DNA of 64,000 nucleotides from Savitreella phatthalungensis (taxonomy: Eukaryota): assembly GCA_051599415.1 (NCBI GenBank), contig AP039692.1:620001-684000 (forward strand). Reading direction: 5' to 3'. Below, in pieces: positions 16,453-37,409 of this stretch. The position numbers and the translations under genes are program-made. The number at the start of each line of letters is the position of its first letter. Position 1 is the stretch's first letter. Under the pieces are notes generated by a model, which was not told where the DNA came from, did no database searches, and was given only the letters and a program-made list of their open reading frames with translations.

Positions 16453-16570
16453 CTCCACGATGTAACGATAGAGAACTGACTGGCCTTGTGCGACTGCCCT
16501 GTGACATGTTCAAGCCTTTGATACGTCACAGAACCCCGTGCAGATCATGTGTTAATGGGGGGAAACTGAA

Positions 16571-16620
16571 CTGAGACTCGACTGAGACTGGACTGAGAGG
16601 ACTGAGTGGACTGAGTGGAC
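16571..16620 (+). repeat. Degenerate tandem repeat of GGACTGAG(A/T)-type units (about 5 copies)
   Basis: ctgagactcg actgagactg gactgagagg actgagtgga ctgagtggac. Confidence 0.8.
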
Positions 16621-16685
16621 GTGCACAAATCTCAACATCCACCAATGGTTCATATCCTTTGCCGTGTTCCAACCCAGCACTGTCA

Positions 16686-16935
16686 GACGCCGTCGGATAG
16701 TGGTTATTCCGTCACCTTGCTACGATTTCAGCCAATGAAATGGAAATAGGGTACGGAATTCAAGATCTTTAATGGCGGGGATTAAACGTTCCTCGTCGAC
16801 ACACTAAAAACATCTTCGGATTCCTGAGTCTACTTCAACTCGTTGCACTAATCCTGAATTTGAAAAATAATTCAGGGTATGCTTGCAGCTAGGTGGTGCT
16901 CATTGAGCGCGTGAGTTCGAATCTCACCGGCGTCG
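16686..16935 (+). tRNA. tRNA-Ser (anticodon GCT) with a 168-nt intron at the canonical 37/38 position (exons 16686-16722 and 16891-16935)
   Basis: Acceptor stem GACGCCG/CGGCGTC with G discriminator; D arm GGA-TAGTGGTTAT-TCC; anticodon stem TCACC/GGTGG with loop TT-GCT-A|A; long variable arm GCTC-ATT-GAGC; T arm GTGAG-TTCGAAT-CTCAC; T5 runs immediately downstream. Confidence 0.9.
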
Positions 16936-16942
16936 ACCAGCC

Positions 16943-16954
16943 TTTTTACTTTTT
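16943..16954 (+). terminator. RNA polymerase III terminator (two T5 runs)
   Basis: tttttacttttt starting 8 nt after the tRNA 3' end. Confidence 0.75.
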
Positions 16955-19640: not shown

Positions 19641-21104
19641 TCAGATGAACCAGGCGAGTGTTGTGATGACAGCGGCGTAAGCTATCAAGATGCCAAGTCC
19701 CGTGTATGTGGGAGTGGTTGGCATGCGGTCGCCCATGAGCAAGTTAATACCACCGGTGGCCAGATTAGCAGCGAGAAAGATCGTGAGTCCGCTCTGATTG
19801 AATTTCTCGAGGAGCACAGCGATCTGTGGCTCCCCGGAACCAGAATCCGAAGGCGTCTTCCGCGTGCGCGTCAACGTCTTGCGCGACGTGTTCTTGTTCG
19901 GTGACACGACCGCAGACGAGTGGCCCTGGCCACTAGCTGATCTGCCAGCGACGAATTTCTGAACGAGTGCGAGGGCGGCTAGCAGGCCGGCGTTGTGTGC
20001 TGCGGAGAGTGCGATGTATGGGAGATTGGCCATGCGCCTGGACACCTGCAGGTGCAGAGGTCCGCGGGCGAACGAGTACGCCGCCCAGTGACATACCGTC
20101 GTGATGGTGAGCAGCGAGATAACAGGTCGTTTCCAACGCGTGCTCAGCACAATGTCTCCTGCATCCAGACCGAGCAAGAAGATACACAGGTACCCGACAA
20201 AGCTACAGAGTCCCTCCCTGTTCTGTCTCACCAAGTCGCCGTCGGGCCGCGGAGCGTCAATAATGAAGTGTTCGAGGCCGTATCGGGTCAGGGCGAGTTG
20301 GTAGATGGAGGCGAAGGCGATCGCCTGGAAGATGAACGGCAGACGAGTGGCGCGTTTGATAGCGACAGCGGCTGGAAGAGCAGGCGCGAGCAGGGCGAGG
20401 GTGACGAAGAAATTCCAGTGGACGCCATACTCAGAGACGTGCTCATGGTAACCAGTACCCCAAACGAGCGCGCTCCGCACGAGCCCCAGCGCGAGCAGTG
20501 TGCCCTGATCTCGAATGGCCGAGGTCCATACCCCCATAGGCAGCGCGCCTCGCGCAGCTACCAGTCGTTGCGCTTTCGGGCTCGCTACAACCCCAGAACT
20601 GAAAACAAATGAGCCAACGCCGAGGTCCATAAGCGACTGCCCGAATGACTCCGTCTTGGCATATCGTCGTGGAAAGATTGGTAGGTCGACCGCGAGGATG
20701 CAAATGATTGTCGAGATCATCATGATGCTCCGGTATGCGGTGACGTATGGTACGCGATCGTTGGGTATTGACGCCTGCGTAGCAGCCACTGGATGTAAAG
20801 CAGCCCGGGGTCTGAACAGGTAGCCGATGGTAAGCCATCCGACGAGCAGCCCTGCAAGCCAGAGAATAGCATCGCCCGAGTACACCGTGAACGCCAGCAG
20901 GGGTACAAGCACATATGCCGCAGCCGATGGCAGGATCTCTTGCACGGAAAAAACGCGCCAACGCGTTAGCGCCGTGTAGACAGCATGAGCAAGCACAATG
21001 ATACCCGTCAGGCGAGCAATCTCGCCTACAGACGAACCGGTCAGGTTGGTATAGAACAGTAGTTTCGAGAGAGCCTCCTGCTCTTTCAGCTGCATCTGTG
21101 ACAT
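19641..21104 (-). CDS. GWT1: GPI inositol acyltransferase GWT1/PIG-W
   Basis: ILAVDLPIFPRRYAKTESFGQSLMDLGVGSF, EYGVHWNFF, NREG, SRRMANLPY and FLAANLATG; multi-TM. Confidence 0.93.
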   Translation of the reverse strand: MSQMQLKEQEALSKLLFYTNLTGSSVGEIARLTGIIVLAHAVYTALTRWRVFSVQEILPSAAAYVLVPLLAFTVYSGDAILWLAGLLVGWLTIGYLFRPRAALHPVAATQASIPNDRVPYVTAYRSIMMISTIICILAVDLPIFPRRYAKTESFGQSLMDLGVGSFVFSSGVVASPKAQRLVAARGALPMGVWTSAIRDQGTLLALGLVRSALVWGTGYHEHVSEYGVHWNFFVTLALLAPALPAAVAIKRATRLPFIFQAIAFASIYQLALTRYGLEHFIIDAPRPDGDLVRQNREGLCSFVGYLCIFLLGLDAGDIVLSTRWKRPVISLLTITTVCHWAAYSFARGPLHLQVSRRMANLPYIALSAAHNAGLLAALALVQKFVAGRSASGQGHSSAVVSPNKNTSRKTLTRTRKTPSDSGSGEPQIAVLLEKFNQSGLTIFLAANLATGGINLLMGDRMPTTPTYTGLGILIAYAAVITTLAWFI

Positions 21105-21351
21105 TGCTGTCACCCGTGATCGCAGCTCTCTACTTGTTCTAATTTACCGACGATGACAACCACCGTGGAAGAACACTCCCACCTTCTGACGTGTTCAGCT
21201 CGGCTGTTTGCTCACGTCAATCTTTCGGTTTCTAAAAATACATTGACGCGACTTCGAATTCACACACAAGTTGCCGGTCGGCCAAAACATTAGACACAAC
21301 CTGATACGGTGCCATGACATTATTACCAGTGTCGCGGCAGATTGAATGTTA

Positions 21352-35567: not shown

Positions 35568-37409
35568 TTACATGCCGCCAAAGATCGAGCCGATGATAGG
35601 CGGCATGCCAGTCTGATCGACGACTGGCGCAGAGGAGGTGGAAGCGGATGGAACGGCGCTGGCCAAATCAACTGTCGAAGTCGGCGCCACAACCGAGGCC
35701 GCGTCAGTAGACAGGCTGGTCGGAACAACGGACGAGACGACCAAAGTGGTCGAAGCAGCGTCGGTCGACAGGCTTGTTACAACGGCTGATGAGACAGCTG
35801 GTGCGGTCGGCACAGAGGAAACGATCACAGTGCTCGAGAGGGCATCTGTCGGTAGACTTGTTGCCACAGTGGGGGAGGTAGCCAAAGTGGTCGAAGGGAT
35901 AACACTTGTCGCTGCTACCACGCTCGACACAAGGTCCGTAGCCACGGATGCGACGCTTGAAACAGCGGTGGAGACCACTGCTGCGCTCGACGCAATATCG
36001 CTGGGCAGAGCGGCTGTGCTCGATGGTGCAATAGGCGCAAGGGTAGCGACACTGGACGAGAGGGCGCTTGCCACGGCTGCTGCACTTGACGCAACGTCGC
36101 TCGGTGCTGCTGCCACGGTCGAGACGACTGCGCTCGGAATCACCGAAGCGGTCGGTAGAGTGAGTGACGATGCGGAAGAGGAGCTGAACGAGGGTAGGGC
36201 CGGGATTGATAGGCTTGGCGGAGACAAGCTCGATGACGGAAGTGTTGGTGGTGCGGGAATGCTCAGCGAGCCTGATGGGCTAGGCAGGACCGGGATTGAA
36301 AGGCTTGGCGGAGACATGCTCGATGACGGGAGTTGTGGTGGTGCGGGAATGCTCAGCGAGCCTGATGGGCTAGGCAGGACGCTTGCTGGCACGCTTGGGG
36401 CAACAGAGATCACTGGGGCCGATGATGCACTGACCGGCACACTCGGGATCGCAGAGATGACCGGCGATGACGGCGCGCTTGCCGGCACACTGGGGAGAGC
36501 AGAAATGACCGGAGGTGATGGTGCGCTTGCTGGAGCACTCGGGATAGCAGAGATGACCGGTCGCGACGGCGCAATTGCTGGCACGCTCGAGATGGCAGAG
36601 ATTACAGGTGGCGATGGCTTGGGAATGGCCTTGGTAGTGAAGCGGCCTGGCACGATGCCGGGCGGCTTTGCCATGCTGGCGGCTGCAGCGCTGGCACGGG
36701 ACTTGATGGAGGACAAGCGCGAGGATGCCTGGCTGAAGCGGGACTTTGCCGAGGATGCTTGGGCGGATAGGGCTGCCTCGACGGACTTGACGCTTGCGAT
36801 GGCAGAAAAAGCGACTGGAACCATCGCAGCAGCGGAACCGGTCTTGATCGCTTGTACCTGAGCGTCGATTGAGCTCAATTGGTTGGAAACGACGCCGACT
36901 TGCAAGTTGACCAGGTTGGTCATGTCATTGATCCCGACAAGCTGGGACTGTTGAATGGATTTAGCGGCGTCGAGCGATGAGATCTGCGAGTTGATTGTGG
37001 AGAGCTCGACTGTGATTGTGACAAGCTCGACGCCCACTTGAGAAAGCGAACGTCCAAGAGAGACGGCCGATGATGCAATCGCTCTGCCCTGAGCAGTGAG
37101 GATGCTTGCAGCAGCAGCGGCGGCAGCCTGTGAACGTGCGGCCGCGGCCGCAGCAGCAGCTTGCGACCGTGCAGCGGCAGCGGCAGCAGCAGCTTGTGAT
37201 TTAGCAGCGGCAGCGGCGGCAGCAGCTTGTGATCGTGCAGCTGCAAGCCCGGAATCAACTGAATTAGGGATTGTTCTGCCAGCAGGCACTCCCGGAATGC
37301 CTCCCAGAGGCAGACCCGCTAGAGGGTTGCCTCCACCTGCATTTGGGATGAGGTGACCGAGATCGATGGCGACCACGGCGGGGACAAGGTAGAGGATGGA
37401 GAACTTCAT
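35568..37409 (-). CDS. Secreted Ser/Ala/Pro-rich mucin-like protein with coiled coil and internal repeats
   Basis: Signal peptide MKFSILYLVPAVVA, (A)nRSQ repeats, a heptad region, PVISAIPS repeats and an S/T-rich tail. Confidence 0.75.
   Translation of the reverse strand: MKFSILYLVPAVVAIDLGHLIPNAGGGNPLAGLPLGGIPGVPAGRTIPNSVDSGLAAARSQAAAAAAAAKSQAAAAAAAARSQAAAAAAAARSQAAAAAAASILTAQGRAIASSAVSLGRSLSQVGVELVTITVELSTINSQISSLDAAKSIQQSQLVGINDMTNLVNLQVGVVSNQLSSIDAQVQAIKTGSAAAMVPVAFSAIASVKSVEAALSAQASSAKSRFSQASSRLSSIKSRASAAAASMAKPPGIVPGRFTTKAIPKPSPPVISAISSVPAIAPSRPVISAIPSAPASAPSPPVISALPSVPASAPSSPVISAIPSVPVSASSAPVISVAPSVPASVLPSPSGSLSIPAPPQLPSSSMSPPSLSIPVLPSPSGSLSIPAPPTLPSSSLSPPSLSIPALPSFSSSSASSLTLPTASVIPSAVVSTVAAAPSDVASSAAAVASALSSSVATLAPIAPSSTAALPSDIASSAAVVSTAVSSVASVATDLVSSVVAATSVIPSTTLATSPTVATSLPTDALSSTVIVSSVPTAPAVSSAVVTSLSTDAASTTLVVSSVVPTSLSTDAASVVAPTSTVDLASAVPSASTSSAPVVDQTGMPPIIGSIFGGM
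36201..36380. repeat. 2 x 90-bp tandem duplication within the mucin-like CDS
   Basis: 36201-36290 and 36291-36380 differ at 5 of 90 positions; each copy encodes a 30-aa unit VLPSPSGSLSIPAPP... Confidence 0.95.

Follow-up and report, generated by a model that had tools for sequence, protein, structure and literature searches.

The gene described here lies on the plus strand at positions 16686-16935 of the 64-kb window (the whole stretch of DNA that was analysed, 64,000 nucleotides) from a fungal host, in a region that also holds genes for a D-2-hydroxyacid dehydrogenase, a Zn2Cys6/Fungal_trans transcription factor, GWT1, an XLF-domain protein and a DEAD-box helicase; its neighbours on either side are the dehydrogenase and the Zn2Cys6 genes. 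ARAGORN with introns allowed, together with hand reading, identifies it as a nuclear-type tRNA-Ser(GCU) gene. In silico removal of positions 16723-16890 leaves a class II cloverleaf of 82 nt, which ARAGORN calls as tRNA-Ser(gct). This program calls a tRNA for almost any trial splice junction, so that a scan of junctions is uninformative. Hand reading places A37 at 16722 and A38 at 16891, and the limits that the initial annotation gave to the intron (16723-16890) are therefore right. The acceptor, D, anticodon, variable and T stems each passed a complementarity check. The gene is made up as follows:

16686..16722, plus strand: 5' exon, tRNA positions 1-37
16686-92/16928-34, plus strand: acceptor stem, 7 bp
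16695-97/16708-10, plus strand: D stem
16712-16/16892-96, plus strand: anticodon stem
16719-21, plus strand: anticodon GCT, followed by A37 (16722); A38 is 16891 (hand reading)
16723..16890, plus strand: intron of 168 nt between tRNA positions 37 and 38 (the canonical site), with 40.5% G+C and no T run longer than 3
16885..16888, plus strand: intron strand of a 4-bp anticodon-intron helix, the partner being tRNA positions 32-35 (16717-16720)
16891..16935, plus strand: 3' exon, starting at A38
16898-901/16905-08, plus strand: long variable arm, 4 bp
16911-15/16923-27, plus strand: T arm, perfectly paired, with a canonical T loop
16935, plus strand: discriminator G, with no encoded CCA
16943-47 and 16950-54 (16943..16954), plus strand: two T5 runs, the first 8 nt past the discriminator

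The host tRNA is complete, and Pol III signals accompany it: TCGGATAGTGGT at 16693-16704 is A-box-like and AGTTCGAATCT at 16914-24 is B-box-like, the two being about 209 bp apart. T runs terminate transcription by Pol III, and the two T5 runs downstream are a probable terminator. With a Pol III promoter inside the gene and a run of T as terminator, it resembles the tRNA-Ser(GCU) genes of budding yeast. A short tandem array at 16570-16620, composed of units ACTGAGACTCG (x2.6) and GACTGAGAG (x4.3), precedes the tRNA gene by 66-116 nt and occupies the zone where upstream elements for Pol III would sit.

The gene falls into an annotation blind spot. Default-mode ARAGORN reported no tRNA in the 64-kb window, and Rfam 15 at gathering score gave no match in the window, the tRNA gene included. 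With introns allowed, ARAGORN reported one tRNA at 16686-16935, mis-called as Thr(ggt) and given a 157-nt intron at a non-canonical place. Older tRNAscan-SE defaults limit the intron and variable region to near 116 nt. Models of this kind are also thrown out by at least one published fungal pipeline, whose authors state that fungal tRNA introns are never longer than 100 nt and discarded such ARAGORN models as false (PMC6108506). Given that a published pipeline and program defaults drop models with long introns, genes such as this one may be under-reported rather than truly absent. For the survey in PMC4536317, tRNAscan-SE was run at a raised intron limit (-L 500).

The insert lies at the canonical 37/38 location of protein-spliced tRNA introns, and its ends are built accordingly. 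Pairing of the anticodon loop with the intron end, which passed a complementarity check, comprises U32.G(-3), U33-A(-4), G34-C(-5) and C35-G(-6), and this 4-bp helix is flanked by the two splice sites, each within a 3-nt bulge (U16721 A16722/C16723 and C16889 U16890/A16891, the slash marking the site). The resulting order of anticodon stem, 3-nt bulge, 4-bp helix and 3-nt bulge is bulge-helix-bulge-like, with the 3' splice site bulged beside the anticodon stem as A-I pairing demands, at a cost of 3.5 kcal/mol relative to another register. The eukaryotic endonuclease requires this end geometry, including the A-I pair, under the ruler mechanism as presented in PMC10485636. Four such pairs would arise by chance in about 2% of cases ((6/16)^4, a rough estimate for random sequence), which favours a true intron over a chance interruption of the gene. 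The arrangement is that of the budding-yeast tRNA-Ser(GCU) introns, where the same tRNA has an intron one base 3' of the anticodon, the intron end pairs with the anticodon loop and both splice sites are bulged (PMC13079951; PMC4090602; PMC10485636); tRNA-Ser(GCU) is among the families listed as intron-bearing in budding yeast (PMC13079951).

Three hairpins had been described within the intron, and every helix named at that time is present in the sequence and in the minimum free energy (MFE) fold of 16723-16890:

16725-30/16736-41 (16725..16741), plus strand: hairpin 1, ATTTCA/TGAAAT, 6 bp with a 5-nt loop
16743..16836, plus strand: hairpin 2, whose long stem (16755-66/16812-24) is interrupted and encloses a hairpin of 9 bp (16773-81/16790-98)
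16755-61/16818-24, plus strand: helix GGAATTC/GGATTCC of hairpin 2, in the MFE fold
16762-66/16812-16, plus strand: helix AAGAT/ATCTT of hairpin 2, in the MFE fold
16773-81/16790-98, plus strand: inner helix (T)GGCGGGGA/TCCTCGTC(G) of hairpin 2, in the MFE fold
16851-60/16869-78 (16851..16878), plus strand: hairpin 3, ATCCTGAATT/AATTCAGGGT, 10 bp with an 8-nt loop (inverted repeat I8)

The comparison with shuffled controls that the initial annotation had called for came out clearly in favour of the fold, the MFE of -49.6 kcal/mol standing against -32.9 +/- 3.4 for shuffles (z -4.89, none of 200 as good). Separate dinucleotide shuffles of the whole intron gave z -3.98 (2 of 300 as good), and the centroid is almost the same as the MFE structure. 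The signal sits in hairpins 2 and 3: hairpin 3 reaches z -5.2 (none of 300 shuffles as good) and hairpin 2 z -3.3 over 16743-16836 or z -4.2 for its core at 16754-16825 (1 of 300 each), with hairpin 1 alone being marginal (z -2.2, 12 of 300). All three hairpins survive when the cloverleaf is enforced in the fold. When the window was cut into 160 tiles of 168 nt, 15 had a G+C content below 0.46 and none matched the energy of the intron, the best (-43.2 kcal/mol) overlapping it. The opposite strand folds much more weakly (-38.6 kcal/mol, z -2.0, matched by 6 of 200 shuffles). The several G-U pairs that had been taken to favour this strand are borne out, as 7 of the 54 pairs are G.U against one symmetric A.C mismatch; this count is biased by structure prediction, and the balance mildly suggests that the plus-strand RNA structure has been selected for, or has at any rate been tolerated.

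Between hairpins 2 and 3 an unpaired linker had been proposed. This description holds for part of the segment, while positions 16842-47 pair with 16883-88 in the MFE fold, and those pairs are in competition with the anticodon-intron helix that splicing requires. Within the hairpins, positions 16757-16766 (5' arm of hairpin 2) are 90% complementary to 16851-16860 (5' arm of hairpin 3; inverted repeat I5), so that pairing between the two hairpins is conceivable as well; they may go back to a single palindromic unit.

A second structure involves the exon:

16706..16759, plus strand: competing exon-intron hairpin, exon 16706-16718 with intron 16747-16759 (inverted repeats I1 and I2)

The exon strand of this hairpin takes in the 3' side of the D stem and the 5' side of the anticodon stem. 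The exon end together with the first 40 intron bases forms an imperfect palindrome centred on hairpin 1, which is its tip. For the 59 nt of 16704-16762 the fold energy is -20.6 kcal/mol (z -4.44, none of 200 shuffles as good), and the hairpin shuts out both the D and anticodon stems as well as the base of hairpin 2. An unconstrained fold of the pre-tRNA selects it, at -90.2 kcal/mol versus -83.5 when the cloverleaf is enforced and -80.0 when the splice-site helix is imposed in its canonical form. Since nearest-neighbour energies ignore the tertiary contacts of the tRNA as well as bound proteins, these values do not show that the precursor misfolds in vivo; by the same model energies, the three-hairpin fold is one of two competing states. 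The I1 and I2 arms are 71% and 83% complementary, and an ungapped comparison of the reverse complement of the exon end with the 5' part of the intron has 16 of 30 columns invariant and a mean column identity of 77%. The 5' third of the intron thus resembles an inverted copy of the adjoining exon end, which hints that the intron may have grown by fold-back duplication.

This intron departs from canonical pre-tRNA introns in its length of 168 nt against roughly 10-100 nt, in its three autonomous hairpins, in a box spacing of about 209 bp and in the competing hairpin, its splicing being predicted. Yeast TFIIIC copes with much wider artificial spacings of the A and B boxes at reduced efficiency. 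In yeast tRNA genes the boxes are given as 31-93 bp apart (PMC11724288). The length of tRNA introns is put at roughly 10 to 100 nt (PMC13079951); for metazoan tRNA introns a range of about 40-250 nt is stated and a 113-nt Drosophila intron is termed unusually large (PMC4536317). Our literature search returned neither a stated longest tRNA intron nor a survey of intron-containing tRNA in filamentous fungi, an outcome that does not prove their absence.

One near-identical relative was available for comparison, a 266-nt contig (run X3) that is about 98% identical over 16658-16919 and retains the intron. Four differences could be placed, namely an A inserted after 16805 and the substitutions A>C at 16746, T>C at 16773 and C>T at 16811. 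As four other letters and one gap are listed in the contig table, a further difference may lack a position. Three of the placed changes fall on unpaired positions, and T>C at 16773 turns a U.G into a C-G pair, such that none breaks a pair. The relative's intron has the same MFE structure at -51.2 versus -49.6 kcal/mol, a stability matched by 10% of 600 random mutants, while 9.2% break no pair. The changes that spare the structure are therefore suggestive at best of a conserved fold. Divergence within the intron (4 of 168 nt) is no lower than in the downstream flank (one other letter and one gap in 75 nt), so that constraint is not shown. The exons have no located difference, which carries little weight at 2% divergence.

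Searches for known families and for copies gave little. The intron, already described as lacking convincing C/D or H/ACA boxes, contains no TGATGA even with one mismatch, and its ACA nearest the 3' end is at 16810, 80 nt off, so that it has the marks of neither snoRNA class. A search of Rfam 15 matched no RNA family at gathering score or at E up to 10, the leftovers at E up to 10 being a mir-83 fragment on the minus strand (15.8 bits, E 6.8) and a match of the T arm to tmRNA. No obvious Dicer-type substrate helix was found in the intron, the longest uninterrupted helices having 9-10 bp and hairpin 2 spanning about 24 interrupted pairs. The best complementary match between the intron and the remainder of the 64-kb window is 13 nt long (E 0.12), and the window holds no second copy of it. 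In a source-like run (X1, about 13 million letters of contigs) a single contig lay on the intron region at a likeness of at least 80%, and a further run (X4) gave no match. The copies, terminal inverted repeats and target-site duplication of a dispersed repeat or MITE were all missing from the 64-kb window and the X1 contigs. Prokaryote genomes gave no match to a piece of the 3' exon or of hairpin 2, and viral contigs none to hairpin 3; both collections are non-fungal and say little. The one metagenome locus (L001) that matched a 21-nt exon pattern was rejected as a chance hit, being a G+C-rich stretch with no tRNA. Depletion of T runs in the intron, tried as a sign of selection for Pol III read-through, was likewise rejected, as 44% of 20,000 shuffles also have no T4.

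We suggest that the insert is probably a genuine and spliceable, if outsized, intron of a Pol III-transcribed tRNA-Ser(GCU), ordinary among protein-spliced introns in its position and ends, with the hairpins forming a compact insert that likely stems from inverted duplication. TFIIIC would span the approximately 209 bp from A to B box, and Pol III would transcribe through the intron as far as the T5 runs. The tRNA body would then fold and the intron end pair with positions 32-35, leaving both splice sites in 3-nt bulges, while the remaining 155 nt or so would fold on themselves into the three hairpins, a compact domain that could keep the splice sites close and the insert off the tRNA body. 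Cleavage by the Sen endonuclease is predicted at 16722/16723 and 16890/16891, after which Trl1 and Tpt1 would join the exons and the linear intron would be turned over. The hairpins would most simply be by-products of fold-back duplication that were afterwards retained or tolerated as RNA structures, with a separate gene not being needed. Against this explanation count the size, the A/B spacing of about 209 bp and the model energies, which favour a misfold; moreover, a strand-specific fold and pair-sparing changes in the relative are also expected of a functional RNA.

The last point leads to the scenario of the initial annotation, in which the tRNA serves as promoter and processing cassette for a nested functional RNA: the excised intron, linear or circular, would be stable and act as a precursor of small RNAs, a fitRNA-like regulator or an RNP scaffold. 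We regard this as unlikely, yet as the foremost of the alternatives. Precedents of a second RNA on a tRNA transcript include the C/D-box guide in the archaeal tRNA-Trp intron and the Pol III-dependent milRNAs of Neurospora. The parallel with both lies in that idea; the present intron differs in having neither C/D nor H/ACA boxes nor an Rfam match, and its Dicer-type processing is hypothetical. The fold far beyond shuffles, its strand specificity and the excess of G.U over A.C (7 to 1) all fit a nested RNA, as do the placed changes in the relative, since four of four are neutral or convert U.G to C-G and the MFE structure is the same. Against it stand the lack of an Rfam match, of a C box and of a 3'-terminal ACA, the short and interrupted helices, the pattern of changes in the relative, which is not significant (about 0.09-0.10) at a divergence equal to that of the flank, and the limit of 13 nt (E 0.12) on complementarity elsewhere in the 64-kb window. 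That the tRNA acts as promoter is trivially true of any tRNA intron. Nested function may be entertained as a hypothesis that passed the folding test against shuffles, yet nothing positive marks a separate RNA gene.

The nearest parallel is the 113-nt intron of the Drosophila tRNA-Tyr gene CR31905, which gives rise to tric31905, has a conserved structure and is cut to small RNAs (PMC4536317). Both are unusually long, strongly folded introns within an ordinary tRNA gene (PMC4536317). For tric31905, in contrast to the present case of one near-identical relative, many pairs covary across Drosophila, circularisation by RtcB is described and the RNA has been detected experimentally (PMC4536317). The hosts also differ, as the one here is fungal and expected to use Trl1. 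Because fungi ligate with Trl1 and are described as lacking RtcB (PMC4090602), and yeast introns are reported as mostly linear (PMC4536317), the metazoan tricRNA route is not expected here. A parallel in a fungal setting is provided by the fitRNAs of yeast, which are linear excised introns that may act through complementarity, and by one circular yeast intron (PMC13079951). As described, fitRNAs are short and have long complementarity to ORFs (PMC13079951), of which the 168-nt intron has none in the 64-kb window.

Next in rank, and improbable in our view, is an inactive or decaying tRNA copy, crippled by the insert, the wide promoter spacing and the misfold, with other tRNA-Ser(GCU) genes serving the cell. 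The spacing of about 209 bp against the 31-93 bp given for yeast (PMC11724288), the misfold favoured by 6.7 kcal/mol over the cloverleaf, and the dismissal as false, in PMC6108506, of ARAGORN models whose intron exceeds 100 nt all fit such a copy; the missing T4 runs, seen likewise in 44% of shuffles, are no evidence of selection for read-through. Against a decaying copy stand the flawless exons, with every stem paired, a canonical T loop, G as discriminator and an unbroken variable arm, as well as an insert placed exactly at 37/38 with full bulge-helix-bulge-like geometry and an intact terminator. The exons of the relative have no located difference, though its divergence of 2% says little.

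The intron might also persist in self-folded form with a function of its own, as a fungal counterpart of tric31905 or an outsized fitRNA, and/or the segment 16747-16759 might act as a switch that gates maturation of this AGY-decoding tRNA-Ser by way of a non-cloverleaf pre-tRNA; we consider this doubtful and place it below the decaying copy.

Least probable of all is a MITE-like mobile or palindromic element inserted into a short ancestral intron, with the hairpins as its inverted repeats: the arms have AATTCA/TGAATT in common and the 5' arms of hairpins 2 and 3 are 90% complementary (I5), but the 64-kb window holds just the one copy, there is a single X1 contig on the region and no exact copy of the searched pieces in the metagenome, prokaryote-genome or viral collections, the repeats are internal and not terminal with no evident target-site duplication, and the minus strand folds much more weakly, unlike a young DNA palindrome.

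If the gene is expressed and spliced, as the outsized-intron explanation predicts, the size range of fungal tRNA introns stretches well beyond the printed figures, and TFIIIC and the Sen endonuclease of this lineage handle a box spacing of about 209 bp and an insert of 168 nt. A long folded intron in a Trl1-type organism would also be a good test case for long tRNA introns as RNAs outside animals. Should it prove merely a bloated intron or a dying copy, it would be a curiosity.

Two further observations concern the surroundings of the gene. The GWT1 homologue at 19641-21113 (minus strand) is 54% identical to its best unnamed match and 39% identical to its best named one, from Protomyces lactucae-debilis; having no close named relative, it indicates a poorly sampled fungal lineage. 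Three adjacent periodic arrays at 36193-36619 and 37108-37239 are built of 90-nt (x2, 92% identity), 48-nt (x4, 70-75% identity) and 33-nt units (x4, rich in GCN triplets), and probably lie within a repeat-containing coding region.
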